This document shows, one piece after another, positions 13,066 through 29,560 of a stretch of DNA of 64,000 nucleotides. A program made the translations under genes and the position numbers. The DNA is from a bacterium. Its GTDB lineage: Bacteria > UBA8248. The notes below the pieces were generated by a model that was given only the letters and a program-made list of their open reading frames with translations, did no database searches and was not told the origin of the DNA. The stretch lies in assembly GCA_965199855.1 (NCBI GenBank), contig OZ241326.1:992001-1056000 (forward strand), written 5' to 3'. Position 1 is the first letter of the stretch; each line of letters begins with the position of its first letter.

Positions 13066-13161
13066 GGCGCACCTCCATTCCTCAAAGATAATCCTGCTCA
13101 ATGCCTAAGTCAACGGATGGCTTCGCGCTTAGAAACCCGCCGCCTCGGGGGGCGCTCCGCC

Positions 13162-13708: not shown

Positions 13709-14476
13709 ATGTTGCGGCCGAGAATCGGAATCACCTGCGACCTGGGCGCGCGGAACTTTCCCGAGGCGCCCCGGCAGCGTCCCCGCCACCTGCTGATGGA
13801 CGCCTACGTGGAGGCCGTGCTCAAGGCGGGCGGCGCGCCCCTGCTTCTGCCCGCGGTGGAGGACGAGCGCGCGGGCGCGGCCGCCCTCGAGGGAGTGGAC
13901 GGGCTGATCATATCGGGCAACGCCTGCGACATCGACCCCGCGCTCTACGGGGAGGATCGGCTGCCCGCGTGCAACCCGCCGAATCCCAGGCGCGAGGCGG
14001 CGGAGATGGCCTCGTGCCGGGCGGCGATGGCGCGCGACATGCCTGTGCTCGGCATCTGCGGGGGGATGCAGGTGCTGAACGTGGCGGCGGGCGGCGCGCT
14101 CTGGCAGGACATTCCCTCGCAGATAGAGGGCGCGCTGCCGCACGCGCCGAAGAACCCCGGGAAAAGCACCTATGTCTTTCACGAGGTGGAGGTCGAGGAC
14201 TCCATCCTGCGGGAAATCCTCGGGAGCGCCTCCGAGGTGAACAGCCATCACCACCAGAGCGCGCGCGAGGCGGGGCCCGGCGTGCGCGTTTCGGCGCGGA
14301 CGGCGGACGGCGTGGTCGAGGCCATCGAGTGCCCCTCGCACCGCTTCGTCGTGGGCGTGCAGTGGCATCCCGAATCCATGTCGGCCTACGGCTCCGCCGA
14401 CGGCGAGGGGGCGGGGCGCCTCTTCGCGCGCTTCGTGGACGAGGCCCGCGCCTTCGCCGAGGAGAACGGGGGGTGA
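13709..14476 (+). CDS. Gamma-glutamyl-gamma-aminobutyrate hydrolase family (peptidase C26, PuuD-like)
   Basis: PRIGIT, DGLIISG, PVLGICGGMQVLNVAAGG nucleophile Cys, VNSHHHQ, GVQWHPE. Confidence 0.92.
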   Translation: MLRPRIGITCDLGARNFPEAPRQRPRHLLMDAYVEAVLKAGGAPLLLPAVEDERAGAAALEGVDGLIISGNACDIDPALYGEDRLPACNPPNPRREAAEMASCRAAMARDMPVLGICGGMQVLNVAAGGALWQDIPSQIEGALPHAPKNPGKSTYVFHEVEVEDSILREILGSASEVNSHHHQSAREAGPGVRVSARTADGVVEAIECPSHRFVVGVQWHPESMSAYGSADGEGAGRLFARFVDEARAFAEENGG

Positions 14477-16668
14477 AGCCGCTCTCGTCTTCCGGCGGCC
14501 GGCTCGCCGCTTTCCTCGCCGCGGGAGCGCTGGCGGCGGGCGTTTGGACGCAGGCCGGCGCGTCTTCCGCCCCGGCAGCTCGCGCCGCCGAGAAGCCGGC
14601 GCTTCAGAAAACCGGCCCGGCGAAGGTGGAGAGGCTACCGGGCGACGACGGAGCCAGGGCGGCTATCCCGCCCGCTATCGAAATCGAAATCCAGCGCCGC
14701 TTCAACGAGATCGAGAAAGAGCGGCTGGATGATCGGGCGGACACCATTGACTGGTGGCTGGCCGTAGTCGCCATCGTCCTGACGTTCTTCGGCATCGTGG
14801 TCGCCATCGCCGGGCTCATTGGCTTCAAGAAATTTCAACAAATCGAAAAAGAGGTGCTAGGAAGCGCTGAGGATGGGAAGAGACATGTAGAGGAAGCCGG
14901 GAAACTCGTGGAGGAAATTAAGGGGCATCGGGATGAATCCCAGACCATCCTCCAGAATATGACCGCCGAAAACTTTGCCGAGATGTCCAAAGACGATCCC
15001 GAAAAAGCGAGGCGAGCCGCCGAGGAAGTCCGTGAAAATCCCCGGGCCTCCCTGACGGACAGGGCGGTCGCCGCGGCGCTTTCCTTCCAGAGGGAAGGCA
15101 GGAAGGACGAAGCCGTCGAGAAATGGCGGGGAATCGCGAAGGTCGCGGAAGGGGATGACGATGATCTCGCCGCCCGCGCCTGGTTTTCCATCGGTTATCT
15201 TTTTCAGGCAAAAGGAAAACCTGGAGAAGCGATTGCCGCCTATGACGAGTCCATTCGCCTGAATCCGAACTTGGCTGAGGCCTACCTCAACCGGGGCAAT
15301 GCGAAGAACAATTTGGGTCAACACCAAGCCGCCATGGCGGATTACGATGAAGCGATCCGCCTGAAACCGGACTACGCCGAAGCCTACTCCAACCGGGGCA
15401 TTACGAAGAACAATTTGGGTCAACACCAAGCCGCCATAGCGGATTCCGATGAGGCGATCCGCCTGAAACCGGACTACGCCGAAGCCTACCTCAACCGGGG
15501 CAATGCGAAGAACAATTTGGGTCAACACCAAGCCGCCATGGCGGATTACGACGAGGCGATCCGCCTGAAACCGGACTACGCCGAAGCCTACTACAACCGG
15601 GGCAACACGAAGAAGGGTTTGGGACAATACGAAGCGGCCATGGCGGATTACGACGAGGCGATCCGCCTGAAACCGGACTACGCCGAAGCCTACCTCAACC
15701 GGGGCAATGCGAAGAACAATTTGGGTCAACACCAAGCCGCCATGGCGGATTACGACGAGGCGATCCGCCTGAAACCGGACTACGCCGAAGCCTACTACAA
15801 CCGGGGCAACACGAAGAAGGGTTTGGGACAATACGAAGCGGCCATGGCGGATTACGACGAGGCGATCCGCCTGAAACCGAACGATGCGGAAGCCTACCTC
15901 AACCGGGGCAATGCGAAGAACAATTTGGGTCAACACCAAGCCGCCATGGCGGATTACGATGAGGCGATCCGCCTGAAACCGAACGATGCGGAAGCCTATA
16001 ACAACCGGGGCAACGCGAAGGATGATCTGGGCCAGCACGAAGCGGCCATGGCGGATTACGACGAGGCGATCCGCCTGAAACCGAACGATGCGGAAGCCTA
16101 TAACAACCGGGGCAACGCGAAGGATGATCTGGGCCAGCACGAAGCGGCCATGGCGGATTACGACGAGGCGATCCGCCTGAAACCGAACGATGCGGAAGCC
16201 TATAACAACCGGGGCGTTGCGAAGAAGGGTTTGGGACAATACGAAGCCGCCATGGCGGATTACGATGAGGCGATCCGCCTGAAACCGGACTACGTGGAAG
16301 CCTATAACAACCGGGGCAACGCGAAGGATGATCTGGGCCAGCACGAAGCGGCCATAGCGGATTACGACGAATCGCTCCGCCTGAATCCGAACTTGGCTGA
16401 GGTCTACAGCAACCGGGGCAATGCGAAGAACAATTTGGGTCAACACAAAGCCGCCATGGCGGATTACGATGAGGCGATCCGCCTGAAACCGGACTACGCC
16501 ACTGCCTACTACAACCGGGGCGTTGCGTCCGTTGTTTTGGACAACAAAGACGCGGCGCGGCGGGATTTCGGGAAAGCGCGAGACTTGGCGCGAAAGGCGG
16601 GCGAGGGTGAGCTCGCAACCCGTGCTGAGTCGGCGTTGAAAGAACTGGATGATCCGCGAGGCGCATAA
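14473..16668 (+). CDS. Membrane-anchored tetratricopeptide-repeat protein (14 TPRs)
   Basis: GTG overlapping the upstream stop; signal-like N-terminus, TM segment WWLAVVAIVLTFFGIVVAIAGLIGF, coiled region, then 34-aa repeats AYxNRGxAKxxLGQxxAAMADYDEAIRLKP. Confidence 0.9.
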   Translation: MKPLSSSGGRLAAFLAAGALAAGVWTQAGASSAPAARAAEKPALQKTGPAKVERLPGDDGARAAIPPAIEIEIQRRFNEIEKERLDDRADTIDWWLAVVAIVLTFFGIVVAIAGLIGFKKFQQIEKEVLGSAEDGKRHVEEAGKLVEEIKGHRDESQTILQNMTAENFAEMSKDDPEKARRAAEEVRENPRASLTDRAVAAALSFQREGRKDEAVEKWRGIAKVAEGDDDDLAARAWFSIGYLFQAKGKPGEAIAAYDESIRLNPNLAEAYLNRGNAKNNLGQHQAAMADYDEAIRLKPDYAEAYSNRGITKNNLGQHQAAIADSDEAIRLKPDYAEAYLNRGNAKNNLGQHQAAMADYDEAIRLKPDYAEAYYNRGNTKKGLGQYEAAMADYDEAIRLKPDYAEAYLNRGNAKNNLGQHQAAMADYDEAIRLKPDYAEAYYNRGNTKKGLGQYEAAMADYDEAIRLKPNDAEAYLNRGNAKNNLGQHQAAMADYDEAIRLKPNDAEAYNNRGNAKDDLGQHEAAMADYDEAIRLKPNDAEAYNNRGNAKDDLGQHEAAMADYDEAIRLKPNDAEAYNNRGVAKKGLGQYEAAMADYDEAIRLKPDYVEAYNNRGNAKDDLGQHEAAIADYDESLRLNPNLAEVYSNRGNAKNNLGQHKAAMADYDEAIRLKPDYATAYYNRGVASVVLDNKDAARRDFGKARDLARKAGEGELATRAESALKELDDPRGA
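15178..16605 (+). repeat. Tandem array of fourteen 102-bp TPR units (units 2-13 near-identical in DNA)
   Basis: Period of exactly 102 nt (e.g. gcctac at 15280 and 16504). Confidence 0.95.
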
Positions 16669-16760: not shown

Positions 16761-17849
16761 ATGTCGGCTCCGAAAACGGAGACTGAACCGCAAGGAGGCG
16801 AGAGCGCGGAAGGGACGCCTCCCGGAGCGAACGGGGCGGCCCATCGCTCCCGGGCGCGCGTCGAAGCGGCCGGGGAGACGGCGGCGTTCAACCGCATTTC
16901 GACAGGCGACGCCAGGGAGCTGCTCGCCTCGTTGCCGGACGCCTGCGTCGATCTCAGCTTCTGGTCGCCGCCCTACTGGGTCGGCAAGGCGTATGAGACC
17001 CACCTCACTTTCGAGGACTGGAAGCGGCTGCTGGCGGAGGTGATTCGCGCCCATCGGCGGGTCGTGAAGCCCGGCGCCTTTCTCGCCGTGAACATCGGCG
17101 ACATTCTCTGCTTCCCGGACGCTTCGATGCCGCGCATCCAGGCCGACAGCGTGCGAGGCAAGAAGGCGGCGGTCACCCGGGAGGACGCGCTGGCGGCCCA
17201 AGCGCGGCATCCGGATGCCAGCCGGCATGAACTCGCCGCGTTGCTCGGGTGCAGCGAGCAGACCGTGCAGCGCCGAATCGAGGGCAACAACGTCCGCGGC
17301 GGCAAGCGCGCCGTATCCACCAGGGTCATGCTGACCTGGTGCCTGCTGGCGCAATGGGCCGAGGAGGCGGGTTTCTACCTCTACGACCGGCGCGTCTGGC
17401 ACAAGGACCCCTGCTGGGCGAACAGCCGCTGGCACTCGAACTCCTATCGCGCGGTTGACGAATTCGAGCACGTCTATGTGTTCTGGAACCCGGGCGCCAC
17501 CGCATACGACAGAGGCCGCCTGAGCGCCGAGGAGTGGTCGGCATGGGGGTCGCGCGGGGTGTGGCGCATCCGCTCCGTGCAGCGAAACGATCGGCACGAG
17601 GCGGAGTTTCCCGAAGAGCTGGCCGAGCGCGTCATCCGCCTGTTCTCCCCCGTCGGCGGGGTCGTGCTGGACCCCTTCGTCGGCAGCGGCACCACGACGG
17701 CGGCGGCGAACCGCCTGGGCCGGAGGTGGATCGGGTTCGACTCCGACCCGGCCTACGCCGGGATGGCGCGAAAGCGGACGCATGACGCGCGGGCGGCGGG
17801 CCCGAACGCCATGGCGCTCCTTGACGGCGCGCGCCGCGCGCGTTCCTGA
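16761..17849 (+). CDS. Orphan beta-class amino (N4-C/N6-A) DNA methyltransferase with an inserted HTH-like segment
   Basis: Motif IV WSPPY before motif I VLDPFVGSGTT; HEAEFPEELAERVI; insert RHELAALLGCSEQTVQRRIE. Confidence 0.88.
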   Translation: MSAPKTETEPQGGESAEGTPPGANGAAHRSRARVEAAGETAAFNRISTGDARELLASLPDACVDLSFWSPPYWVGKAYETHLTFEDWKRLLAEVIRAHRRVVKPGAFLAVNIGDILCFPDASMPRIQADSVRGKKAAVTREDALAAQARHPDASRHELAALLGCSEQTVQRRIEGNNVRGGKRAVSTRVMLTWCLLAQWAEEAGFYLYDRRVWHKDPCWANSRWHSNSYRAVDEFEHVYVFWNPGATAYDRGRLSAEEWSAWGSRGVWRIRSVQRNDRHEAEFPEELAERVIRLFSPVGGVVLDPFVGSGTTTAAANRLGRRWIGFDSDPAYAGMARKRTHDARAAGPNAMALLDGARRARS

Positions 17850-19033: not shown

Positions 19034-20161
19034 CTACGGACGCTCTGGGACGGCGGGGGCGCGCTCCAGGGCGGCGAGGATTCTCTCTCGCGCCCGCCGG
19101 TGGGCCGCGCAGCCGACGATTTTCAAAGCTTTCTCTCTCTCGCCGGCCTCTTCCAGACCGGGAGGCCGGCGGGCTTGCTCCAGGCTTCGCAGCCGCGCCG
19201 CGGAGGCCGCCGCCTGCGCCTCGGGGAGATCGCCCTCCCGCAGGGCGCGCGCGATGGCGGCGAGCGCTTCTTCCTGTGCTTTTTCCGAATGGCAGATGAG
19301 CGCCATGTCCGCCCCCGCGCGGATGGCCCGCAGGGCGGCCTCGGCAGGGTTCGCTATCGCGCCCATGTCCAGGTCGTCGGTGAAGGCCGCGCCGCCGAAG
19401 CCGAATTCCCCGCGCAGAAGCTCCCGCATGAACCTGGGCGAGAGGCTGGCCGGCGCAGAGGCGTCGATTTCCTCATAGAGGGCGTGGGCGGCCATGACGC
19501 AGGCGGGAGGGCGGCGGCCGATGACGCGCCGGAAGGGCTCCAGTTCGCGCGCCCTCAAGTCGTCGAGCGGGACGCGGCTGGTCGGCAGGACTTCATGCGG
19601 GTCGGGCGCCATGCCGCCGATGCCCGGAAAGTGCTTGGCGCAGGCGGCCACGCCCGCCTCTTGGAGGCCCTCGACGACGGCCGCGCCCATGCGCCCGACG
19701 AGCGCGGGCGAGGCGCCGAAGGCGCGATCCCCGATGACGGCGCAGGCGGGGTTCGAGAGCGCGTCCAGCACGGGGGCGAAATTCAGGTTCACGCCGACGG
19801 CGGCGAGCTCCGCCCCGGTGATGCGGGCGGCCTCGCGCGCGAGGGCGGTGTCGCCCGCGTCGCCAAAGGCCCGCGCCGCCGGGAAGGTGGTGAAGTCGGC
19901 GGAGAGGCGGTTCACGCGCCCGCCTTCCTGGTCGATGCCGACCAGGAGCGGAAGCCCCTCGGGCGAGGCGCGGGCGGCCTCCTGGAGGGAGGCGATGAGC
20001 GCGGCCGTCTGCGGGGCGGATTCGATGTTTCTGGCAAAGAGAATGACGCCGCCGATTCTCCCCTCTCGCGCGCGCTCGATGAGCGCGGCCGGCGCCTCCG
20101 CGCCCTCGAAGCCGACCATGAGAAGACGCCCGGCGCGGACCTCGGGAGAGAGGGGCGTCAT
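19034..20161 (-). CDS. nagZ: Beta-N-acetylhexosaminidase (GH3)
   Basis: GGVILFARNI, IDQEGGRVNRL, NFAPVLD, KHFPG..DPH, TDDLDMGA. Confidence 0.9.
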   Translation of the reverse strand: MTPLSPEVRAGRLLMVGFEGAEAPAALIERAREGRIGGVILFARNIESAPQTAALIASLQEAARASPEGLPLLVGIDQEGGRVNRLSADFTTFPAARAFGDAGDTALAREAARITGAELAAVGVNLNFAPVLDALSNPACAVIGDRAFGASPALVGRMGAAVVEGLQEAGVAACAKHFPGIGGMAPDPHEVLPTSRVPLDDLRARELEPFRRVIGRRPPACVMAAHALYEEIDASAPASLSPRFMRELLRGEFGFGGAAFTDDLDMGAIANPAEAALRAIRAGADMALICHSEKAQEEALAAIARALREGDLPEAQAAASAARLRSLEQARRPPGLEEAGEREKALKIVGCAAHRRARERILAALERAPAVPERP

Positions 20162-20170
20162 CCGCGCGCC

Positions 20171-20863
20171 TCAGCCCTTTCGCATCCGCGCGATGACGAA
20201 AGGCTCGGCCATCGGCAGGCCCGCCAGGCGGCCCGCGTCCTCCAGGCGCTGGCGCATCCGCTTTCGCATGGCTTCGGGATCCTTGATCTGGCACTTGTGC
20301 GCGCAGATCGCGCGCATTTTCGTCTCGAAGGTCTCCGAGATGTCCACGAAGAAGTTGGGGTTCAGCGCGTTGAGATACAGCAGGCTGTCCGTGTGGTGCG
20401 CCTCGATGCCCGCGCAGGCGAGCTCAGGCAGAAAGTGGTGATCCCGCGCGTAGATCACCGCCTTGAACGCGGCGTGGCCGATCGCCTGGTGGTCGGGGTG
20501 CTGATAGTGGGTTCGCCACGGGTCGTGGGTAAGGACTGCGTCCGGCCGGAAGTGGCGGATGAGGAAGGCGAGCTGGTTCCTGAACGCGCGGTCATCCTCG
20601 AGCTCGCCGTCTCGGTGCCGGAGAAACACGGTTTCCCTGACCCCCAGGATTCTCGACGCCTCGAGCTGCTCCGCCTCGCGCGTCTTGGCGAGGTCGAAGG
20701 GGCTTACGTCCTCCTTCGTGCCCTTGTCGCCGTTCGTGCAGACGACGGTGCGCACGGCGGCGCCTTCCCCCGTCCAGCGGGCGATGCTCCCGCCGGCGGA
20801 GAGCTCCGCGTCGTCGGGGTGGGCGACGATGACGAGCACTTCCTGAAATTCCGCGCGATTCAA
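20171..20863 (-). CDS. PIG-L/LmbE family deacetylase (MshB/BshB-like)
   Basis: AHPDDAE, TNGDKG, REAEQLEASRILGV, HPDH. Confidence 0.92.
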   Translation of the reverse strand: MNRAEFQEVLVIVAHPDDAELSAGGSIARWTGEGAAVRTVVCTNGDKGTKEDVSPFDLAKTREAEQLEASRILGVRETVFLRHRDGELEDDRAFRNQLAFLIRHFRPDAVLTHDPWRTHYQHPDHQAIGHAAFKAVIYARDHHFLPELACAGIEAHHTDSLLYLNALNPNFFVDISETFETKMRAICAHKCQIKDPEAMRKRMRQRLEDAGRLAGLPMAEPFVIARMRKG

Positions 20864-20881
20864 TGCCGTTTTCCTTGTCGT

Positions 20882-22189
20882 TCAAGAAGCATGATGGGAG
20901 GAGAGCGCGGCCCCGGGCGCGCCGGCGCGTTCGCCCGCCAGACCCGTCCAGACCTCGAGCTCCGCCTCCGCGGCGCGCGTCCAGGCGAACGACCCCGCCC
21001 AGGCCACGACCTCCCGCCGGGGGCGCTCTCGCCGGCTTTCCAGCATCCCGAGCATCTCGCGGGCGAAGGCGGCGACGTCGCCCTCGGGGACGAGGCGGCC
21101 GCTTTCGCCCTCCGAGACGGCCTGCGAGAGGCCGCCCACGTCGAAGGCGATCGTCGGCAGTCCGCAGGCGGCCGCCTCGAGGGCGGCGATGCCGAAACTC
21201 TCGTAGCGCGAGGGCAGCGCGAATACGTCGGCGGCGGAGTAGAAAAGCGGAAGCGCCTCCTGCGGCCTGGCGCCCAGAAAGAAGGCGCGCCCGGCCACGC
21301 CGCGCCGCTCGGCGAGCGCCTCCAGGCGGGAGATTTCCGCCGCTTGGGCGGGCGAGGCGAAATCCTGCGCGCGATAGGCGTTTCCTGTTTTTTCCGCGCT
21401 GTTTTTGATCTCGCCGCCGATGTGCAGAAAGCGCGCATCTAGCCCCGGGCGTTCGCGCGCGAGGATGGCGAGGGCCTCTATCAGGCAATCCAGCCCCTTG
21501 ACGCGCTCGATTCTTCCCACGCCGAGAATATAGACGCCCTCCGGGGCGAGTCCCAGCCGCTCGCGCGCCTCGCGCTTCGGATGCGGGCGGAATTTCTCCA
21601 GATCCACGCCGCAGGGGATGACGCGGATATCCGCCGCGCCGGCCATCGCGCGCAGGGCGCGCGCCTCTGCGGGGGAGGAGGCGAGAAGCGCGTCCGCCAG
21701 CCGAGCCAAGGCGGGCTCGGCCGCCAGCCGCGCCGCCGATTCACGCGCGCCGGCGGGGGACAGGGCGTCGTTCTTGAGCGCGGCCAGAGTGTGAAAGCGA
21801 ATGGCGAGGGGGACGCCCCACCTCCCGGCCAGCGTCTGGCCCGCGAGGCCCGATAGCCAGTAGTGCGCGGAAATCCCATCGTAGCGAATCCGGCGCTCCT
21901 CCGCGAACGCCAGAATCCCCCGGGCGAATTCCTCGACCCATGCGCGCTGGGCGTCCTTGCCCAGCTTCTCCCGGGGCCCCGCCTCGATGCGGATGAGGCG
22001 GCTTCCGGGGGCGAGCGGAACCAGCGCGTCGGCTTCGTCCGAATCGAGACGGGTGAAGACGTCCGTCCGCGCGCCCAGGGCCGCGAGCGCCCTGGCGGTT
22101 TCGCGCGCGTAGACGTTCATGCCGCCCGCCAGGTCGCCGCCCAGGGGGGCGAGCGGGTCGGTGTGCATCGAGAGCATCGCCAGGCGCAT
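20882..22189 (-). CDS. GT4 glycosyltransferase, MshA-like
   Basis: GGAGG RBS; MHTDPLAPLGGDLAGGMNVY, HYWLSG, FHTLAALK, GRIERVKG, PSRYESFGIAALEAAACG match the MshA pattern. Confidence 0.88.
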   Translation of the reverse strand: MRLAMLSMHTDPLAPLGGDLAGGMNVYARETARALAALGARTDVFTRLDSDEADALVPLAPGSRLIRIEAGPREKLGKDAQRAWVEEFARGILAFAEERRIRYDGISAHYWLSGLAGQTLAGRWGVPLAIRFHTLAALKNDALSPAGARESAARLAAEPALARLADALLASSPAEARALRAMAGAADIRVIPCGVDLEKFRPHPKREARERLGLAPEGVYILGVGRIERVKGLDCLIEALAILARERPGLDARFLHIGGEIKNSAEKTGNAYRAQDFASPAQAAEISRLEALAERRGVAGRAFFLGARPQEALPLFYSAADVFALPSRYESFGIAALEAAACGLPTIAFDVGGLSQAVSEGESGRLVPEGDVAAFAREMLGMLESRRERPRREVVAWAGSFAWTRAAEAELEVWTGLAGERAGAPGAALSSHHAS

Positions 22190-22203
22190 CGCCTCCTCCT
22201 TCG

Positions 22204-23217
22204 TCAGGCGCTCCTTGCGAGCCGCGCGCGCATCACGCGCTCGTCGCGCGCCCCGAAGCGGTATTTGTAGCCCTCGTCGCCCCGCAGCAGGTCGAAGGCG
22301 GCGCGCCCCGCGCGAATCGCCTCCTCCACCTTGTGGGCGAGCAGCACCACGCCCGCGCTCAACTCGCGCTCCACGGGGTCGAAGCCCGAGTTGTAGAGGT
22401 ACACCCTGTCGCGGTAGTCGAAGGCGAGGTGGGCAGCGACGGGGTGGTCGTCCACCCGCATGATCGTCAGGTCCAGATAGCCCAGCGCGAGCATCTCCCG
22501 GCTCGCGTCCTCGAAGAAGGCTTTTCTCGCGGGGTTCCAGAAATCGGACTTCTCCGGCTGACTGAGCGCGTGGAGGGCGATGAAGTCGCGCAAGTCGGCC
22601 TCGAGCGCCTCCGCCGAGGCCGTTCGCTCGTAGGCCAGCCCCTCCTCCATGTTGGCTTTTCGCGCCTTGCGCCGCAGGTCGCGCTCGTCCCTGGGATGAA
22701 GGGTTCTGGCGAACTCCGCCCAGGAGCCGGGCAGAGTGATGACGGGGCAGACCTCCTCCTGGGAGATCGAGACGGCGTCTCCCGTCAGATCCACAAGAGC
22801 GGATAGGGTGGGGGACGCCTCGGGAATTCCCCGAAGGGAGAGCTCCCGCCACGCGGGGGCGTCCGGCTCGAGCAGGGCGGAGAGAATCACCCGCCAGACC
22901 GCCAAGTGCGCCCCGTCGGCGGCCACGATGTCGAGGTAGTCGGAGAGGTCGTCTCCTCCCGTGAGCCGCAGCCGCCCATCCTCGTTCAGGAGTAGGGGCG
23001 CGACGCCCAGGAGCGCGCCGTCCTCCCCGCGCGCGGCGTAGATGCGCAGCTCGCCCGCTCCGAAATTCTTCCACCAGCAGGCGTGCCACGCGGGGTCGTA
23101 GAAGGGGTGCGCGTGGCGCGAGCGCGCCATGAGCGCGCGCCATTCGGCCGCGAGCACGGCGAACGCCGCCGCCGATGAGAAGACCTCTGTTCGCAAGGAG
23201 CAACAGCTTCGCGGCAT
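22204..23217 (-). CDS. CelD/BcsL-type GNAT-fold acyltransferase (Acetyltransf_6)
   Basis: LSDYLDI, CPVITLPGSW, YLYNSGFDP, FDLLRGDEGYKYRFGA. Confidence 0.88.
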   Translation of the reverse strand: MPRSCCSLRTEVFSSAAAFAVLAAEWRALMARSRHAHPFYDPAWHACWWKNFGAGELRIYAARGEDGALLGVAPLLLNEDGRLRLTGGDDLSDYLDIVAADGAHLAVWRVILSALLEPDAPAWRELSLRGIPEASPTLSALVDLTGDAVSISQEEVCPVITLPGSWAEFARTLHPRDERDLRRKARKANMEEGLAYERTASAEALEADLRDFIALHALSQPEKSDFWNPARKAFFEDASREMLALGYLDLTIMRVDDHPVAAHLAFDYRDRVYLYNSGFDPVERELSAGVVLLAHKVEEAIRAGRAAFDLLRGDEGYKYRFGARDERVMRARLARSA

Positions 23218-23243
23218 CGGGATTCCTTCGCGTCCCTGCGGCC

Positions 23244-23840
23244 TCAGCCGGACTGGCTCAGCGCGACGAAGCTGACCGGAGGGTGGCCCGCCAGCGGCTC
23301 CGAGAGGCGCGAGCGGCCGAAGACGAAAAAGCGGTCGTGGTAGAGCGTCTGAAACTGGGTGAAGCCCGCCTTGCTCACCCCGCGCCTCGAGGCCCGGTTG
23401 CCCGATTCCACGAAGATGAGGGAGCGCTTGAGCCTCAGGCCTTCCCCGTATTTCAGCGCGCGCCTCAGCACGGAGGGGTAGAGGTTCTTCCCCCGCCAGG
23501 GTTCGAGGGTGAAGGCGTCATAGAGATAGATTTCCGCCGCTTCGGGCTTCACGGCGCGGTCGATTTCCTCCACGCCCACGACGCCGCGCGCCCCCCAGAT
23601 GTAGCTCACCGCCTTGCCCTCCTCGAGGGCGGCGAAGCATTTCTCGCCGCGCTCGAAGCGCTTCGACGTCAGATTCTCGCCCTGCACGTCGGAGATCAGG
23701 CGGCGGTTGGGGGAGGCGCGGTCGAGGATGACGTGCTCCACCTTGATTCTCGCCTCGCCGGGCGGTATCTCGGCCGGATGCTGAAAGTCGTAGAGACACA
23801 GCTCCACCGAAGTGAGAAGCGTCGCCCTCAGAAAATTCAA
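23244..23840 (-). CDS. GNAT family N-acetyltransferase
   Basis: YLYDAFTLEPWRGKNLY acetyl-CoA motif A; NRASRRGVSKAGF. Confidence 0.82.
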   Translation of the reverse strand: MNFLRATLLTSVELCLYDFQHPAEIPPGEARIKVEHVILDRASPNRRLISDVQGENLTSKRFERGEKCFAALEEGKAVSYIWGARGVVGVEEIDRAVKPEAAEIYLYDAFTLEPWRGKNLYPSVLRRALKYGEGLRLKRSLIFVESGNRASRRGVSKAGFTQFQTLYHDRFFVFGRSRLSEPLAGHPPVSFVALSQSG

Positions 23841-24874
23841 GCGGGGTTGCTCCTTCCCTTCAAGAGCGCTTCAAGAAAGTCCCCGAGCGCGTCGTGGAGT
23901 CGGGCGAGATCCCTCCGCTTTTCAAAATGCTCCTGAAGCATCCTCGCCGCGCGCGGAATGTTCACGAGATAGCGCTCCGCCCCCCGCGCGGCCTTCTGGT
24001 AGGCGAAGGTGCCGATGGCCTTGAGGTTGCGCTGAATGGCCGTGGCGCGCAGGGCGCGTTCGTACCCTTCTTTATCCGAGAAATGACGGTGGCCGCAAGT
24101 CTCCCAGCAGCGGCGGACGAGGCTTTCTCTCGCGTTCTCGTCGAGGGCCGCGTAGCTGTCAAAGGCGAGAGACGCCAAATCATACAGGACGGGGCCCATG
24201 CGCGCGTCCTGAAAGTCAAGAACGAACACCTTGCCGTCGGCGACCATCAGGTTCCTGCTGTGGTAGTCGCGGTGGACGAGGCGGAAGGGCTGCCGGCAGA
24301 TTTCCTCGCACAATTCGCGGAACAATCCGTCCAGGGCGCGCGCGTCGGTTTTCATCCCCAGGAGACTCTCGAAGGCGTATTTGCGCGCGTGATGAAGCTC
24401 GTTCGTGAAAAAGGCGGGGTCGAAGCGGCGCGCGAGGGAGACTCCGCCGCCCGCGGGCGCGCGGGGCGCCTCCTGGATGGCCGCCATCATGTCAAGGGCG
24501 GCGGCGTAGGCGGGCTGCGCGCGCGCCCATCCGCCGCGATTCCATACGTCCTCCAGCGAATCGTCGCCGCAGTCTTCGAGGAGGATGACGCCGGCCTCCT
24601 CGTCCATAGTAAAAATTTCGGGGACGCGGACGCCGAGCTCGCAGAAGCGCGCCCGCGCCTCGACGAAGGGGAGCGTCTCCTTCCTGAAAGGCTCTTGCAG
24701 AATCATGCCGACCGAGCTGGCGCGCGCCCCGCCCGGATGCGCGAGGCGAACGTAGGCGCGATCCGAGGCGTCGCCCCGAAGCGGCGCGAGGGAGCGGACG
24801 GCGACGCCGAAACGCTCGCGCGCCAGGGCCTTCAGGCGCTCATGCGCGAGAACGCTCGCGGCGTTCGCCTTCAT
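23837..24874 (-). CDS. APH-family phosphotransferase, AmgK-like anomeric amino-sugar kinase
   Basis: GDASDRAYVRL, LLEDCGD, VHRDYHSRNLM, LDFQDARMGP.YDLASL, QRNLKAIGTF. Confidence 0.87.
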   Translation of the reverse strand: MKANAASVLAHERLKALARERFGVAVRSLAPLRGDASDRAYVRLAHPGGARASSVGMILQEPFRKETLPFVEARARFCELGVRVPEIFTMDEEAGVILLEDCGDDSLEDVWNRGGWARAQPAYAAALDMMAAIQEAPRAPAGGGVSLARRFDPAFFTNELHHARKYAFESLLGMKTDARALDGLFRELCEEICRQPFRLVHRDYHSRNLMVADGKVFVLDFQDARMGPVLYDLASLAFDSYAALDENARESLVRRCWETCGHRHFSDKEGYERALRATAIQRNLKAIGTFAYQKAARGAERYLVNIPRAARMLQEHFEKRRDLARLHDALGDFLEALLKGRSNPA

Positions 24875-25728
24875 GCGGGGAGCGGCTCGTCCCGAAGGGA
24901 GAGCGCGGAGACGGCGCGCGCCAGAGCCGCCAGCGTCTCGCGGTGGGATTCCTCCCTGCTCTTGAGCTCGAAGGCGAGCGGCCCGCGGTAGCCCCGCGCG
25001 TCGAGAGCGGCGAAGAAGGGGCGCCACGCGAGCGCTCCTTCGCCCGGAATGAGGTGGGCGTCGCTTCGTCCGTCGTTGTCGTGGAGGTGGACCGCCGCGC
25101 ACAGGGGCGCGAGACGCTCGACGGCCTGCCGGACGCGCTCTCCCTCGGTGATGAGGGCGTGGCCCGCGTCGATGCAGATTTTCAGCCGTGGATGATCGAT
25201 GCCCTCCACGAAGCGGGCGAGCGGCTCCGCGCGGCCCAGGGCGGCGGGGATGTTCTCGAGGGCCAGGACGGCGTCCAGCGCCTCCGCCGCCGGCAGGAGG
25301 CGCGCCAGACTCTCCTCCAGCGCCTCGCGGCTGTCTTTCTCCCCCGCTTTTCCGGGCGCGCCCGGATGGAGGACGGCGACCCGCGCCCCCAGAGGGCGCA
25401 GGGCGCGCATGGAGGCGAGAGTCTTCTGGATGGCCGCCGCGCGCGCCCCCGCGTCGGGCGAGGAGAGGGAGAGCCAGCGTCCCTTCTTCGCCTCGCTCAA
25501 ATCCGCGTAGAAAGGGGCGTGAAGCGAGGAGGCCGACAGCGAGAGGTCGTCCAGCCAGCGTTCGAGCGTCCGGATCGCGGAGGGATCGCTCACGTCGAGA
25601 TGAGGCGTCATCGCCCAGAGCTCGATTCGCCGAAAGCCGGCCTCCGCCGCGTCTTTCAGATGATCGAAGCGGAGCGGCTCCCGGGCGAAAAGGTGGGCCG
25701 ACAGGGCGAGGCTGGCTCTCAATGCCAT
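24871..25728 (-). CDS. Sugar phosphate isomerase/epimerase (xylose-isomerase-like TIM barrel)
   Basis: SLHAPF, LALEN, CIDAGHA, VHLHDNDGRSDAHLIPGEG, FEL. Confidence 0.88.
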   Translation of the reverse strand: MALRASLALSAHLFAREPLRFDHLKDAAEAGFRRIELWAMTPHLDVSDPSAIRTLERWLDDLSLSASSLHAPFYADLSEAKKGRWLSLSSPDAGARAAAIQKTLASMRALRPLGARVAVLHPGAPGKAGEKDSREALEESLARLLPAAEALDAVLALENIPAALGRAEPLARFVEGIDHPRLKICIDAGHALITEGERVRQAVERLAPLCAAVHLHDNDGRSDAHLIPGEGALAWRPFFAALDARGYRGPLAFELKSREESHRETLAALARAVSALSLRDEPLPA

Positions 25729-25890
25729 TCCTTCGGCGGGCGGAGCGACGTGCGTTGCGCGGGAGGGGATTATACGCCGCCGAATGAGGAGCCGGCAATG
25801 CGCGGGCGCGAATCCCCGGATTGCCCGGAGGAGGCTTGCCGCGCCGCCCGCCAGGCGTTCGACATGGAGCGGGAACCATGACCGCGCCGG

Positions 25891-25919
25891 TTGACAGATG
25901 CGCGCCCGGCACCCATGAT
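25891..25919 (+). promoter_or_regulatory. Sigma70 promoter of the FadR-family gene
   Basis: TTGACA (25891-25896), 17 nt, CATGAT (25914-25919). Confidence 0.7.
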
Positions 25920-25932
25920 TGGTCTTACCATC
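25918..25932. promoter_or_regulatory. FadR/PdhR-type operator ATTGGTcttACCA
   Basis: Palindrome TGGT-CTT-ACCA at 25920-25930 matches the FadR-subfamily TGGTnnnACCA consensus and sits directly after the -10 box. Confidence 0.75.
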
Positions 25933-26038
25933 CGACCAGAAAATTTCGGATACCGATTCGGGCTCAGGAGAAACAGGGGCGTTTCCCCCCTCGCGTTCGA
26001 GACGCCGGGAGGGGGACGCGCCCCCCGGAGGCGGCGCC

Positions 26039-26773
26039 TTGCTTCGGCCGGTGAGAAAGACGAGGCTCTACGAAGGCGTGGTGGAGCAGATACAGAGCCT
26101 CATCCGCAAGCGGAAGTTCGTCCCCGGCGACCGGCTGCCCTCCGAGCGCGAACTCGCGGCGGCGCTCGGCATCGGCCGCCCCTCGGTGAGAGAGGCCCTG
26201 CGCGCCCTCGACGCCACGGGACTCATCGAGGTGCGGAGCGGCCGGGGCGCGTTTTTGCGCAACCTCTCGGGCGATCCCTACCTCGCCACGGTGCGCGAGA
26301 GCCTGGCGTTTCTGCTTGACGTGCGGGGGGACACCCTGCTCGAGCTCTGGGAGGTGCGTCGGGGACTGGAGGAGCAGATCGCGCGCCTGGCCGCCGCGCG
26401 CGGGACGCCGGCGCAGCTCGCCTTCCTGAGAAGCCGCACGGAGGAGATGCGAAGACGCATCGGAGCGCCCGAAGCCTTCGTGCGCGCGGGGGTGGCCTGC
26501 CACCGCGCGCTGTGCGAGGCGGCGGGAAACGCCGTTCTGCGGACAGTGTGGGAGGCCATCGCGGGCCTGATCGAGAAGAGCCAGCGCAGAATCATCGGCG
26601 TTCCCGGCCAGCCGGACGAGGCGCTCCGCCAGCACGAGAGGCTGCTCGCCGCCGTTGCGGCGGGCGACGCGGAGGCGGCCGCCTTCGCCATGCGCGAGCA
26701 CATGGAGGCGGAGGGCGCGCTGTTGCGGGAGGCGCTCGCCGCGTCCCGAAATGGGGAGCGGGTCGGCGTCTGA
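26039..26773 (+). CDS. GntR/FadR family transcriptional regulator
   Basis: GGAGG 7 nt before TTG 26039; PGDRLPSERELAAALGIGRPSVREAL wHTH; FCD domain. The TTG at 25919 in the ORF track lies inside the promoter, so it is unlikely to be the start. Confidence 0.92.
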   Translation: MLRPVRKTRLYEGVVEQIQSLIRKRKFVPGDRLPSERELAAALGIGRPSVREALRALDATGLIEVRSGRGAFLRNLSGDPYLATVRESLAFLLDVRGDTLLELWEVRRGLEEQIARLAAARGTPAQLAFLRSRTEEMRRRIGAPEAFVRAGVACHRALCEAAGNAVLRTVWEAIAGLIEKSQRRIIGVPGQPDEALRQHERLLAAVAAGDAEAAAFAMREHMEAEGALLREALAASRNGERVGV

Positions 26774-26878
26774 AGGCTCGCCGCTCGGGCGCTCCCGCTT
26801 TTCGGACGCTTTTGTCGGAGGATTTTTCAGCTCTTTGGATGAACGCTTCACCCCCATTTCCGCACAGGAGGAATCTTC

Positions 26879-28228
26879 ATGGTGGAAACGAGCAAGCAGG
26901 GAATGCCGATGGACTTCTTGCAGAAGGAGCACTACCAGTCCCCCCGGCGCGTCTACAGCCAGACGGGCAGCGACTGGCAGCGCCGCGTGGACTTCGACCG
27001 GATGCGCAAGGACAGGCTCGCCCGCGCCAAGGCGATGATGGAAAAGCACGACATGGACGCCATCATCATGTACAAGGGCGAAAACATCCGCTACACCGCG
27101 TCGGTCTTCCAGGGCAACTGGAAGAACAACATCTTCATCCGCTACGCCGTGCTCTGCCGGGGCGCGGAGACGCCGGTGCTCTTCGAGACGGCGGGTTCCG
27201 ACTACGAATGCGCCCGCATCGACGCGCCCTGGCTCGAGGGCAACATCCGCCCCGCCATCACGTGGAAATGGTCCGAAACCGCCGAGCAGATGATGGTGAA
27301 CCGCATGGCGGATTCCGTCATCGACGTTCTCAAGGAGAACAACGTTCCGCTCAACGGCAGAATCGGCATCGACATCATGGACATGCAGGCCTACAGCGCC
27401 TTCACCGAGAAGGGCGTGAACCTGGTGAACGCATGGCCGGCGATGAGCGAGGCGCGCGTCATCAAGACGCCCGAGGAGATCGAGTGCCTCAAGATCAGCT
27501 CGACCATCGGCGACACCTGCATGTGGAAGATCCGCAACGAGTGGCTCAAGCCCGGCATCCGCGAGTGCGACCTCACCGCGTGGGTCAACAACCTGCTCTA
27601 CGAGGAGGGCTTCGACTTCGTCTATGACATCATCGTCGCCTCGGGCGGGAACACCAGCCCCTACCGCCGCTGGCACACCGACAAGATGATCCGCGACGGA
27701 GACCTCGTCGTCGTGGACATCAACGCCATCGGCCCGGGCGGCTACTTCGTGGACTACGTGCGCTGCTTCAAGTGCGGCGGCGGCTGGACGAAGAAGGAGA
27801 GGCAGCTCTACCGCGAGGTCTATGACACGATGTACGCGGGCATGTCCCAGCTCGCGCCGGGCAAGACCTCCAAGGACGTCGCTTCGCAGTTCCCCGTCTA
27901 TGCCGACGACAAATACGGCACGGTGACGCTCCAGCAGTTCGCGCACTCCATCGGCCTCGACCTCTACGAGGGCATGTGGATCAGCCGCGCCTACAGCCTC
28001 GACTATCCGGTGGAGATCAAGGAGAACATGTATTTCGCCATCGAGACCTTCGCCGGCCATCCCGGGCTTCCGCAGACGGTGCGCCTGGAGGAGAACGTGC
28101 TCGTCGGCCCCGACGGCCCCGTCGTCTTCACCGGCTCCTCGCACTACGACGAGTGCATCGAAGATTCGCCCTACTACGACTTCTCGGCGAAGTCCCGGGG
28201 CGAGCCGCGCTTCGAGCTGCCCGAGTAG
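26879..28228 (+). CDS. M24 family (Xaa-Pro peptidase/creatinase-like) metallohydrolase
   Basis: ARVIKTPEEIE, metal ligands VVDINA..GYFVDYVR, AHSIGL, AIET, RLEENV. Confidence 0.85.
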   Translation: MVETSKQGMPMDFLQKEHYQSPRRVYSQTGSDWQRRVDFDRMRKDRLARAKAMMEKHDMDAIIMYKGENIRYTASVFQGNWKNNIFIRYAVLCRGAETPVLFETAGSDYECARIDAPWLEGNIRPAITWKWSETAEQMMVNRMADSVIDVLKENNVPLNGRIGIDIMDMQAYSAFTEKGVNLVNAWPAMSEARVIKTPEEIECLKISSTIGDTCMWKIRNEWLKPGIRECDLTAWVNNLLYEEGFDFVYDIIVASGGNTSPYRRWHTDKMIRDGDLVVVDINAIGPGGYFVDYVRCFKCGGGWTKKERQLYREVYDTMYAGMSQLAPGKTSKDVASQFPVYADDKYGTVTLQQFAHSIGLDLYEGMWISRAYSLDYPVEIKENMYFAIETFAGHPGLPQTVRLEENVLVGPDGPVVFTGSSHYDECIEDSPYYDFSAKSRGEPRFELPE

Positions 28229-28339
28229 AGAGCGCCTCTCCCGTCCGCTCCGCCTTCGGCGCGGACGGGAGGCGTCCTTCATCTTTCGCGCGAGGGGGGA
28301 GAATCGCCTCCCGAAAAAGACGCATAGGAGAATCACGCG

Positions 28340-29560
28340 ATGAGCGAGCCCTGGAACACCGAAATGTGGTTCACCAGCCCGTGGAATTTCGAGGGCGAGG
28401 TGACCGCCGGCATCAAGTTCGACCCCAGCCCCAGAATTCACGACGTGACGCTCAGGGACGGGGAGCAGCAGGCGGGCGTCATGTTCAACAAGGACGAGAA
28501 GATACGCATCGCCGAGGCGCTCGCCGAGGTCGGCGTCCACCGCATCGAGGCCGGGATGCCGGTGGTCTCGCCCTCGGACGAGGCGGCGATCCGCGAGATC
28601 GTCAAGCGGCTCGAGGGCGCGGACACCGAAGTGTTCAGCTTCGCGCGCTGCATGGCCGACGACGTGAAGCGCTCCGCCGACACCGGCGTCAAGGGCGTCG
28701 TCATGGAAGTGCCCAGCTCCACGCACATGATCGAACGCGCCTACAAGTGGGAGCTCGACAAGGCCATCGACACCTCCGTGAAGGCCACCCAGGTGGCGAA
28801 GGAGTGCGGCCTCTACACCGTGTTCTTCCCCATCGACTTCTCCCGCGCTCCGCTCGACTGGGTGCTGGGACTGCTGAAGAAGGTGGCCACCGAGGGCCAC
28901 ATGGACGCGCTGGCGATTGTGGACACCTTCGGCGTGCTGAGTCCGCACACGGTGCCCTACGTCATCCGCAAGATGCGCGAGGTGTTCCCGAACGAGCCGT
29001 TCGAGCCGCATTTCCACGACGACTACGGCATGGGCGTGGCCAACACGCTCATGGCGATGGCCGAGGGCTGCCAGGTGGCGCAGACCTCCGTGAGCGGCGT
29101 CGGCGAGCGCGCGGGAAACGCCGCCTACGAGGAGCTGGCCCTCGCCATGCTGACCATGTATGGCGTGGACATGGGGCTGAAGACGGAGAAGTTCACCGAG
29201 ATGTCGAGGCTCGTCCAGGAGTGCGGGCGCATCAGCCTGGCGCCGAACCGCTGCGTCGTGGGCGACAACCTCTACGACATCGAGAGCGGCATCATCGTCA
29301 GCTGGCTCAAGAACTGCGAGAAGGATTTTCCGACCGAGCTCGTCCCCTTCCGCGCCGGCCTCGTCGGCCAGAAGGAGCCCGCGCCGGTCATCGGCAAGGG
29401 GAGCGGCATCGACTCCATCAACCTCTTCCTGGAGCAGCTGGGCATCCGGGCGTCCGAGGAGGAGAAGATGGCGCTCCTGATGGACGTCAAGGAAAAGTCC
29501 CTGAGCCTGCACCGCCTGCTCACGATGGATGAATTCAAGGAGCTGGCCGGGGGAGAATGA
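28340..29560 (+). CDS. DRE-TIM metallolyase, homocitrate/isopropylmalate synthase-like
   Basis: DVTLRDGEQ, IEAG, HFHDDYGMGVAN, GVGERAGNA; no LeuA regulatory domain. Confidence 0.88.
   Translation: MSEPWNTEMWFTSPWNFEGEVTAGIKFDPSPRIHDVTLRDGEQQAGVMFNKDEKIRIAEALAEVGVHRIEAGMPVVSPSDEAAIREIVKRLEGADTEVFSFARCMADDVKRSADTGVKGVVMEVPSSTHMIERAYKWELDKAIDTSVKATQVAKECGLYTVFFPIDFSRAPLDWVLGLLKKVATEGHMDALAIVDTFGVLSPHTVPYVIRKMREVFPNEPFEPHFHDDYGMGVANTLMAMAEGCQVAQTSVSGVGERAGNAAYEELALAMLTMYGVDMGLKTEKFTEMSRLVQECGRISLAPNRCVVGDNLYDIESGIIVSWLKNCEKDFPTELVPFRAGLVGQKEPAPVIGKGSGIDSINLFLEQLGIRASEEEKMALLMDVKEKSLSLHRLLTMDEFKELAGGE

Follow-up and report, generated by a model that had tools for sequence, protein, structure and literature searches.

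We analysed a cluster of seven genes at positions 19034–25728 of a 64,000-nucleotide stretch of contig OZ241326.1 (hereafter the window) from the genome of a sponge-associated bacterium of the Nitrospina group. In the direction of transcription, the cluster encodes a TIM-barrel protein, an APH-fold kinase, a small GNAT protein, a CelD/BcsL-type double-GNAT protein (the CelD-like protein), an MshA-like glycosyltransferase of family GT4, a PIG-L deacetylase and a NagZ-type glycoside hydrolase of family GH3. Our main finding is that the CelD-like protein, the glycosyltransferase and the deacetylase probably constitute the core of an operon, the product of which would be a mycothiol-like N-acylated glucosamine glycoside; we put the probability of this reading at roughly 0.55. 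The more general statement about the core chemistry, namely that an N-acetylglucosamine (GlcNAc) glycoside is converted to a glucosamine (GlcN) glycoside and then to an N-acyl or N-aminoacyl product, appears likely.

The glycosyltransferase is closest to MshA

The first-pass annotation of this DNA had called the glycosyltransferase MshA-like, and both family scores and binding-site residues bear this out. The best NCBIfam family for the protein is MshA (TIGR03449, 307.3 bits) and the runner-up family reaches 95 bits; it scores 86 bits on the BshA model and 79 bits on the sucrose-phosphate synthase model. Among the sequences in the PDB, it matches CgMshA, the cyanobacterial chain Tll1590 and, at 46 bits, BshA (5d00). 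In the alignment with CgMshA (3c4q), the N-terminal domain is free of gaps and the residue numbers coincide. The accessible text of PMC12182360 names R231, K236, E316, F318, L320 and E324 as UDP-binding residues of CgMshA, and G23 and H133 as residues of its inositol-phosphate site. In the 3c4q alignment, the counterparts of the UDP-binding residues are R226, K231, E330, F332, I334 and E338, and G23 and H133 occupy the inositol-phosphate positions, meaning that all the quoted positions are kept with a Leu-to-Ile change at 334 as the sole difference. Moreover, G23, H133, R226, K231, E330, F332 and E338 are invariant in 15 relatives of the glycosyltransferase, down to 37% identity, and K78, Y110, T134 and R154 are likewise invariant in these relatives. 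The latter four are reportedly phosphate ligands of CgMshA (Vetting 2008); a literature search for papers naming these residues found none, and another on the acceptors of MshA and BshA was likewise empty. As judged from its sequence, the protein is an MshA-like enzyme with a predicted UDP-sugar donor site and a predicted phospho-acceptor site, and GlcNAc is presumably the sugar transferred, because a deacetylase gene adjoins the glycosyltransferase gene.

Two sets of scores caution against equating the protein with MshA itself. First, it stays below the curated MshA equivalog cut-off of 462.5 bits, which was also missed by all 38 of the glycosyltransferase relatives tested (268.8–400.2 bits); in a control set of 14 genomes, one passes this cut-off. 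The matches listed by a further homologue search were all relatives of this type, and the few with names bore the labels Methylomirabilota or Rokubacteria. Second, Tll1590, which we take to be a sucrose-phosphate synthase, scores nearly at the level of CgMshA (189 versus 210 bits), and the conserved residues may therefore mark merely some phospho-acceptor.

A FemX-type fold is predicted for the CelD-like protein

The only Pfam match of the CelD-like protein is PF13480 (103 bits), and its gene is the only PF13480 gene in its genome. No Pfam FemAB-family match was obtained at E ≤ 0.01, and a profile of 25 CelD-like sequences, searched against the PDB sequences, retrieved no Fem protein at E ≤ 1 and gave chance-level matches only. 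An AlphaFold2 model of the protein, based on the 25-sequence alignment, had a mean pLDDT of 94.7. The top Foldseek match of this model was FemX of Weissella (TMq 0.64–0.68), followed by Sbb17/Sba18, which are entitled 'aminoacyl-tRNA-dependent peptide synthase ... complexed with streptothrisamine', and then by MprF-type synthases. Pairwise comparison (Table 1) showed that every aminoacyl-tRNA-dependent family outranks every acyl-CoA tandem GNAT, MshD included. This ranking of the predicted model supports a position of the CelD-like protein nearer to the aminoacyl-tRNA-dependent transferases than to the acyl-CoA tandem GNATs.

Table 1 Structural comparison of known proteins with the model of the CelD-like protein
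Protein	VIA Z	Root-mean-square deviation (rmsd)	Aligned residues
FemA	23.0	3.4	280
S. aureus FemX	22.9	3.3–3.7	
W. viridescens FemX	21.2–21.8	3.3–3.7	
Sba18/Sbb17	21.0–21.2	3.3–3.7	273–276
aaPGS/MprF	17.9–19.4	3.4–3.7	
MAB_4324 (acyl-CoA tandem GNAT)	16.7	5–8	
MshD	14.5–15.8	5–8	
Glucosamine N-acetyltransferase	~15.6	5–8	
VipF	14–15	5–8	

Residues R183, K184, N276, S277, G278, E315, Y317 and K318 are invariant in the 25 CelD-like sequences. The Y317-K318 pair lies near the C-terminus, as does the FemX lysine, which is a likeness in sequence position. In the accessible part of PMC12945691, the catalytic residue of FemX is Lys305 and that of DhpH-C is given as Phe328-Lys329. The same part reports that Orf11 converts streptothrisamine to glycylthricin using Gly-tRNA, which provides a precedent for a Fem-fold enzyme that acylates an amino-sugar amine from a tRNA. 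The CelD-like protein is thus a candidate aminoacyl transferase for which the glycoside's free amine would be the target, and an aminoacyl-tRNA would, on balance, be its more probable donor. It should be said against this that fold similarity by itself shows no tRNA use, and that we found no demonstrated donor for any PF13480 member.

These comparisons also bear on a different possibility, in which the CelD-like protein would be an acyl-CoA-dependent N-acyltransferase that puts a short acyl group onto the GlcN glycoside, with no tRNA involved. Such a role would agree with the Pfam class of PF13480, a GNAT acetyltransferase domain, and with the lack of a FemAB match at the above threshold; in addition, tandem GNATs, including MshD and glucosamine N-acetyltransferase, still align with the model (Z 14.5–16.7). 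However, the aminoacyl-tRNA families align more closely (Z 17.9–23.0 and rmsd 3.3–3.7, versus Z 14–16.7 and rmsd 5–8), and the invariant aromatic-Lys pair is like the catalytic Lys of FemX and DhpH-C in sequence, as far as the accessible text of PMC12945691 describes it. Removal of an acetyl group by PIG-L followed by the re-addition of a short acyl group would also need an explanation. We consider an acyl-CoA donor unlikely.

Additional copies of the CelD-like gene occur in some genomes. One genome of the same family as the window's genome (G012) carries four extra CelD-like paralogs (150–170 bits) on contigs C2 and C34 besides the copy linked to the glycosyltransferase gene, and another genome (G060) carries three extra ones.

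The CelD-like and glycosyltransferase genes are linked across phyla

To describe the occurrence of the cluster, loci were fetched with the glycosyltransferase, and the best 80 of 591 confirmed stretches were used. A CelD-like gene lies directly upstream of the glycosyltransferase gene in 29 of these 80 loci, which come from metagenome-assembled genomes (MAGs) labelled Nitrospinota, Tectomicrobia, Chloroflexota (Dehalococcoidia, Chloroflexia and Anaerolineae), Thermodesulfobacteriota and Rokubacteria. Two related loci with the NCBI labels 'Nitrospinota bacterium' and 'uncultured Nitrospinaceae bacterium' proved to be from the window's phylum in the genome collection, their hit coordinates being the same under both handles. 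The stop codon of the CelD-like gene overlaps the start of the glycosyltransferase gene in 5 of 11 distant loci examined, and a PIG-L gene directly follows the glycosyltransferase gene in 12 of the 80 loci. Outside the window's phylum, the conserved core consists of the CelD-like and glycosyltransferase genes, in some cases joined by PIG-L; NagZ and the kinase are not part of it. Within the phylum, 49 of 51 genomes have the glycosyltransferase, 48 of 51 have the CelD-like protein, and all 29 high-quality genomes have both; this near-universality suggests a housekeeping role. Of the 48 phylum genomes with the pair, 47 carry the two genes side by side, and in the exception they are split over two contig ends. 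The linkage noticed in the first-pass annotation is therefore conserved far beyond the window.

The identical seven genes in identical order were found in 7 of the 80 loci, down to 39% glycosyltransferase identity, so the seven-gene arrangement is not due to chance; one further locus, situated at a contig end, has the order CelD-glycosyltransferase-PIG-L-NagZ. We regard the cross-phylum pairing of the CelD-like and glycosyltransferase genes as strong evidence of shared function, and the conservation of the outer genes within the phylum as weak evidence. The flanking genes are syntenic too in a distant relative (L018), which counts against a functional interpretation of the outer genes: the order of the TIM-barrel, kinase and NagZ genes may reflect descent rather than function.

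Several candidate features of these loci were rejected. A kinase-GNAT fusion in L012–L014 was dismissed, as an in-frame stop separates the kinase and GNAT genes in L012, the sole locus translated. A 737-aa open reading frame in L059 is not a CelD-glycosyltransferase fusion, since it has no PF13480 domain. A seemingly recurring partner of the metallo-beta-lactamase fold (L037, L087 and beside the host's own inositol-3-phosphate synthase gene) proved to belong to different subfamilies (GloB-like, RNase Z-like and SoxH-like).

Distribution of CelD-like and MshC-like genes

In a FastTree phylogeny of 77 glycosyltransferases (two rows with internal stops were dropped), those with an adjacent CelD-like gene form a Nitrospina-type clade and basal branches, and two derived clades have no adjacent CelD-like gene, namely Chloroflexales (8 rows) and Anaerolineae (35 rows). 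Whole-genome searches found a CelD-like gene, linked or unlinked, in 35 of 46 glycosyltransferase-bearing genomes outside the window's phylum. The Anaerolineae searched have an unlinked CelD-like gene (218–333 bits). Seven of the 11 CelD-less genomes are Chloroflexales, which carry a second frame resembling cysteinyl-tRNA synthetase (CysRS), 398–429 aa long and scoring 360–394 bits on the MshC model, as well as a normal CysRS (271–300 bits, frames of 475–500 aa). Two of these paralogs were scanned against NCBIfam and matched positions 1–384 and 1–399 of the 466 in the cysS model and positions 19/20–408 of the 411 in the MshC model; these extents indicate that the two scanned proteins are predicted CysRS paralogs of MshC length without the C-terminal part. 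Altogether, 33 of the 46 genomes have the CelD-like gene only, seven have the MshC-like gene only, two have both and four have neither. The last group comprises G075, G088, G095 and G096; a sister MAG of G075 has a CelD-like gene in two pieces.

This distribution agrees with a swap between two ligases and is our sole pointer toward cysteine. Some of its features weigh against such a swap. The Chloroflexales paralog fits the cysS model as well as it fits the MshC model; two genomes (G057 and G066) carry both CelD-like and MshC-like genes; and the seven Chloroflexales form one clade, thus representing one evolutionary event rather than seven. The first-pass annotation had proposed that the CelD-like protein replaces MshC, possibly with Cys-tRNA as the donor. 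This proposal is partly supported: the FemX-type fold, the linkage to the glycosyltransferase and the MshC-length paralog where the CelD-like gene is missing all agree with a replacement, and its cysteine component stays tentative, as discussed below.

The genomes with the paralog are those behind loci L039, L086, L022, L027, L069, L043 and L079 (Chloroflexus, Oscillochloris and relatives), and the paralog loci are L107–L110. PIG-L adjoins the glycosyltransferase gene in two of these Chloroflexales. We regard the group as possible non-actinobacterial carriers of a more canonical mycothiol-like pathway.

Deacetylase, acceptor supply and thiol-related context

The PIG-L deacetylase of the cluster has the motifs AHPDD (HPDD at residue 15) and HPDH (residue 122); AHPDD and HxDH are the metal-binding and catalytic motifs of PIG-L deacetylases. 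It scores 110 bits on BshB1 (cut-off 182.5), 89 bits on BshB2 and 56 bits on MshB (cut-off 224), and reaches no equivalog cut-off. Its being closer to BshB1 than to MshB speaks against a strictly mycothiol-like route. The host genome has five PIG-L genes. An unlinked paralog at 1167387–1168289 (+) of contig C1 (4888–5790 of L103) reaches 188 bits with the MshB model and 176 bits with the Mca model, and is kept in 42 of 51 phylum genomes. Upstream of its gene lie 2-oxoacid:ferredoxin oxidoreductase genes, and the adjacent glyoxalase-fold gene runs convergently to it. The host genome also encodes one MDMPI_N/DinB-type protein; among the 14 control genomes, this type was found only in B. subtilis, T. 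thermophilus, D. radiodurans and C. glutamicum, which we take to be bacillithiol or mycothiol producers. In L037, the gene before the CelD-like gene encodes a GloB-like hydrolase (91 bits), and the glycosyltransferase gene adjoins one for an inositol monophosphatase. We treat the MshB/Mca-like paralog, the MDMPI/DinB protein and the neighbours in L037 as hints of thiol metabolism.

A source of the acceptor is present in the host genome, which is a single contig of 3.04 Mb rated 100% complete. It has one unlinked inositol-3-phosphate synthase (Ino1; 129 bits on PF01658 and 420 bits on TIGR03450, cut-off 638). Of the 51 phylum genomes, 47 have Ino1, as do 26 of 37 glycosyltransferase-bearing genomes reached via the loci, with 13 of 16 among those having an adjacent CelD-glycosyltransferase pair and 13 of 21 among those without; two of the 16 belong to the window's phylum, and outside the phylum the count is 11 of 14. 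Inositol phosphate would be the acceptor by a narrow preference. On the other side, Ino1 was not found in 11 of the 37 genomes, including that of the isolate Oscillochloris trichoides DG6 (a completeness figure is lacking for most of these 11 assemblies), nor in a genome of the window's phylum rated 100% complete (G007). These genomes weigh against inositol phosphate as a universal acceptor.

The first-pass annotation had noted that the cluster contains no MshC and had named other thiol-pathway genes to be sought in the genome. Model searches of the complete contig found no canonical mshC or bshC elsewhere: the MshC model matches one CysRS-like locus only (289 bits versus a cut-off of 485) and the BshC model gives 0 matches. 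For GshB, the sole match in the genome is RimK. A YbdK-type GCS2 carboxylate-amine ligase (387 bits) is present, which might give a gamma-Glu-Cys-type thiol; this detracts from a mycothiol-like product as the thiol of the host. Mycothione reductase was rejected as a further marker, because its model matches only generic flavoprotein disulfide reductases (258 and 234 bits versus a cut-off of 636).

Given these data, it is a tentative suggestion that the added amino acid is cysteine and the product a low-molecular-weight thiol. The same scaffold might instead lead to a non-thiol, if the FemX-like enzyme added Gly, Ala, Ser or another residue to give a solute, signal or cofactor. Inositol glycosides are known as solutes, the sequence gives no pointer to the amino acid, and the window contains no tRNA gene or extra aminoacyl-tRNA synthetase. 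FemX-fold relatives with solved structures take Ala, Gly, Ser, Leu or Lys from tRNA, according to PDB titles and the accessible text of PMC12945691, and none is described there with Cys-tRNA. What speaks for cysteine instead is that Chloroflexales replace the CelD-like gene with a CysRS-derived paralog of MshC length, that the MshB/Mca-like amidase paralog and the DinB/MDMPI-type protein are retained, and that the genome has no GshB or BshC to provide another major thiol. Overall, we judge a non-thiol product to be rather unlikely.

Operon structure, accessory genes and genomic setting

The first-pass annotation had described seven co-oriented genes with overlaps or gaps under 30 nt, and the coordinates and family scans confirm both their presence and their positions (Table 2). 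The spacing along the cluster is −4, −4, 26, 14, 18 and 9 nt, the 4-nt stop/start overlaps being those between the TIM-barrel and kinase genes and between the kinase and small GNAT genes. A candidate sigma-70-like site lies about 40 nt upstream of the TIM-barrel gene. The region has two such sites versus 0.3 expected, the second of which faces the divergent GntR gene, and none was found inside the cluster. No hydrophobic segment of transmembrane strength was detected in any of the seven proteins. The best reading is that all seven belong to a single operon, with soluble cytoplasmic enzymes as its products. The labels 'isomerase', 'AmgK-like' and 'GNAT = MshD' in the first-pass annotation hold at the level of broad families only.

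Table 2 Features of the cluster and its surroundings in the window
Feature	Positions	Strand	Details
TIM barrel	24871–25728	-	285 aa; PF01261, 146 bits
APH-fold kinase	23837–24874	-	345 aa; PF01636, 75 bits
Small GNAT	23244–23840	-	198 aa, TTG start; Pfam GNAT matches sub-threshold
CelD/BcsL-type double-GNAT	22204–23217	-	337 aa; PF13480, 103 bits
MshA-like GT4	20882–22189	-	435 aa; TIGR03449, 307.3 bits (cut-off 462.5)
PIG-L deacetylase	20171–20863	-	230 aa; PF02585, 116 bits (cut-off 28.2)
NagZ-type GH3, last gene	19034–20161	-	375 aa; NF003740, 247.7 bits (cut-off 207)
Sigma-70-like promoter candidate	25769–25798	-	TTGCCG-18-TATAAT, 10/12; consensus match only
GntR/FCD regulator, M24 peptidase, HMGL-like lyase	25919–29560	+	Divergent from the operon
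PF01555 N6/N4 DNA methylase	16761–17849	+	Beside YchF
Open frame	12505–16668	+	1387 aa, TTG start; lower-GC stretch (0.63)
ATP-grasp L-amino-acid-ligase-type gene and short-chain dehydrogenase gene	37277–39305	-	PF13535, LAL_C2; overlapping genes
Low-GC segment	46001–48000		GC 0.54 versus ~0.68 elsewhere
KdsD-type gene	54046–55071		SIS+CBS

The TIM-barrel protein has CbiR phosphodiesterase as its best NCBIfam family (61 bits versus a cut-off of 105) and MJ1311 as its best PDB sequence match (44 bits), and the ESM Atlas returned generic names only. By its sequence it is a candidate sugar or cyclitol isomerase/epimerase or metal-dependent phosphoesterase; a role as the missing phosphatase is conceivable because of the weak best match to CbiR. 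An ortholog at the matching position was found in 7 of the 80 loci. The kinase scores 115 bits on the AmgK model NF045759 (cut-off 550; 22–319 of 324 positions) and 63 bits on the other AmgK model (cut-off 500), and matches PDB 3csv at 97 bits. Its catalytic loop is intact, with HRDYHSRN and DFQD motifs, and it is the sole AmgK-like match in its genome. NagZ, the only GH3 protein of the genome, passes the NF003740 equivalog cut-off and has the motifs KHFPGIGGMAPDPH and KHFPG...D-x-H. NagZ and the kinase may feed recycled GlcNAc toward UDP-GlcNAc, or they may merely be co-transcribed housekeeping recycling genes, which is possible because they are the only copies in the genome.

The small GNAT has two sub-threshold Pfam GNAT matches (22 and 19 bits) and matches no NCBIfam family at E ≤ 0.01, hence not the MshD family. 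Its AlphaFold2 model (pLDDT 87.9) confirmed a GNAT fold, and Foldseek returned generic acyl-CoA GNATs (TMq ~0.5), with MshD at ranks 13 and 49 (TMq 0.50–0.51). The protein has a single domain, whereas MshD has two; an MshD-like role is possible. Its narrow distribution tells against a general MshD-like step: orthologs were found in the seven full clusters and L087, and in 2 of 46 outside genomes. Because of this low count, which includes one sequence that had been used in building the model, the small GNAT was rejected as a conserved core member.

The presence of recycling genes raises the alternative of a cell-envelope role, in which NagZ and the kinase would recycle peptidoglycan fragments and the GT4, PIG-L and CelD-like proteins would modify a wall or outer glycan or lipid. 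Exopolysaccharide loci include genes annotated as CelD/BcsL-type, MprF-type relatives attach amino acids to lipids, and NagZ both passes its equivalog cut-off and is, like the kinase, the only such gene in the genome. Some loci also have envelope genes nearby, with an MltA lytic transglycosylase 1.7 kb upstream in L025 and division genes adjoining in L033 and L083. Nevertheless, the operon includes no flippase, polymerase, export or membrane protein and no segments of transmembrane strength, the glycosyltransferase keeps the soluble-acceptor residues of MshA, and the core outside the phylum dispenses with NagZ and the kinase. GT4 enzymes are retaining and give alpha-linked products, and NagZ, as a beta-hexosaminidase, would not act on the product of the glycosyltransferase. 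A cell-envelope role therefore seems very unlikely to us.

The guanine-plus-cytosine (GC) content of the window ranges from 0.54 to 0.73 in 2-kb windows and is about 0.63–0.73 over the cluster region. Long spurious open reading frames are common in such GC-rich DNA, and the real genes were picked by third-position GC and family scans. The cluster is bordered by a divergent GntR/FCD regulator gene upstream and a convergent YchF gene downstream. In L018 the cluster is flanked by the M24 and HMGL genes without GntR, and the regulator may for this reason belong to the M24/HMGL genes rather than to the operon. Further PF01555 genes lie two genes downstream of Ino1 (L094, 3842–4750, -) and next to the GCS2 ligase gene (L095, 3866–4864, -). 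The PF13535 ligase and the overlapping dehydrogenase may be a small peptide-forming pair. The KdsD-type gene mentioned in the first-pass annotation was found in the window, and the host belongs to a diderm-type lineage with a KdsD-like gene. DNA near-identical to positions 19034–25728 (at least half of the sampled words) is present in 13 public runs, six of which are labelled 'sponge metagenome'; no RNA runs are listed among them.

Proposed pathway

In the pathway that we propose, the GT4 enzyme would move GlcNAc from UDP-GlcNAc onto a phosphorylated acceptor, most likely 1L-myo-inositol-1-phosphate supplied by the unlinked Ino1. A phosphatase, for which the TIM-barrel protein is one candidate, would then strip the phosphate, and PIG-L would take off the N-acetyl group to expose the amine. 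The FemX-fold CelD-like protein would acylate this amine, most likely with an amino acid from an aminoacyl-tRNA, and this step would stand in for that of MshC, the ATP-dependent CysRS paralog of Actinobacteria. In the window's phylum, the small GNAT may cap the new alpha-amine in the fashion of MshD.

A more specific version, which we hold somewhat more tentatively than the assignment of cysteine itself, is that the CelD-like protein is a Cys-tRNA-dependent ligase and the product a mycothiol analogue, Cys-GlcN-inositol, which would be N-acetylated by the small GNAT and serve as the main thiol of the Nitrospina-group phylum. With lineage-specific tailoring, it would also cover most Chloroflexota, Methylomirabilota/Rokubacteria, Tectomicrobia and some Thermodesulfobacteriota. 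If true, this would be the first redox-buffer thiol made with a charged tRNA, and the Fem-type transferase and the CysRS-derived MshC would exemplify non-orthologous displacement. We know of no protective thiol identified in the Nitrospina group (marine nitrite oxidizers and sponge symbionts), most Chloroflexota or Rokubacteria. The operon offers a testable route, with three core enzymes and a defined reaction order, and two kinds of cultured organism, one with the Fem-type gene and one with the MshC-like gene, can be compared. Ornatilinea apprima P3M-1 represents the first kind, having the glycosyltransferase, an unlinked CelD-like gene (310 bits) and Ino1 but no MshC-like paralog; Chloroflexus islandicus and Oscillochloris trichoides represent the second, in which the glycosyltransferase is accompanied by an MshC-like paralog and the CelD-like gene is absent. 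Should an aminoacyl-tRNA be the donor, a core metabolite would join cell walls, lipids and antibiotics among the products of tRNA-dependent non-ribosomal amide formation; with an amino acid other than cysteine, the product would still be an undescribed, widespread glycoside.

Comparison with known systems

Our literature search, with subscription journals and bioRxiv supplements outside its reach, found no description of an MshA-like glycosyltransferase coupled to a Fem/CelD-type transferase. New here are the seven-gene form and its near-universality in the Nitrospina-group phylum, the MshB/Mca-like paralog, and the distribution of CelD-like versus MshC-like genes.

By their own thresholds, the cluster proteins fall outside the MshA, MshB, MshC and MshD equivalogs. 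The mycothiol pathway of Actinobacteria comprises Ino1, MshA, MshA2, MshB, MshC and MshD, according to the accessible text of PMC2628429. The present system shares with it an MshA-like GT4 with the quoted residues, Ino1, a PIG-L protein, a possible amine-capping GNAT and an unlinked MshB/Mca-like paralog. Unlike mycothiol synthesis, it has no MshC, and a PF13480 protein of predicted FemX fold is coupled to the glycosyltransferase; furthermore, the glycosyltransferase and the deacetylase score below the equivalog cut-offs, the deacetylase is nearer to BshB1, the GNAT has a single domain and the host is of diderm type. Bacillithiol synthesis by BshA, BshB and BshC is similar in combining a GT4 and a PIG-L enzyme with the subsequent addition of an amino acid, and the cluster deacetylase scores best on BshB1. 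It differs in that the similarity of our glycosyltransferase to BshA is weak (86 bits on the model, 46 bits to 5d00), BshC is absent, and the acceptor residues are of the MshA type.

Glycosylphosphatidylinositol (GPI) synthesis, with PIG-A and PIG-L, and the 2-deoxystreptamine aminoglycoside pathways also transfer GlcNAc by a GT4 enzyme to inositol or a cyclitol, followed by a PIG-L step. A residue correspondence between PIG-A and MshA is given in the accessible text of PMC12182360. These routes are without Fem-type acylation, and our cluster has no lipid-handling or aminoglycoside-tailoring genes.

For the acylation step, Sba18/Sbb17 have the same double-GNAT FemX fold and a comparable proposed reaction, the acylation of an amino-sugar amine from an aminoacyl-tRNA. 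However, their identity to the CelD-like protein is 11–12%, and they act on streptothrisamine in actinomycete secondary metabolism, whereas the gene described here is a near-universal single-copy gene of whole phyla, coupled to an MshA-like glycosyltransferase. FemX/FemA/FemB, MurM and MprF/aaPGS include the best structural matches, and the aromatic-Lys pair near the C-terminus of the CelD-like sequences resembles in sequence position what is reported for the catalytic Lys of FemX. In contrast to these enzymes, the CelD-like protein has no Pfam FemAB match, no coiled-coil insertion and no membrane domain, and its proposed acceptor is a small soluble glycoside. Taken together, these likenesses are best read as a system that would follow mycothiol and bacillithiol synthesis up to the free amine and would thereafter resemble Fem, MprF and Orf11.

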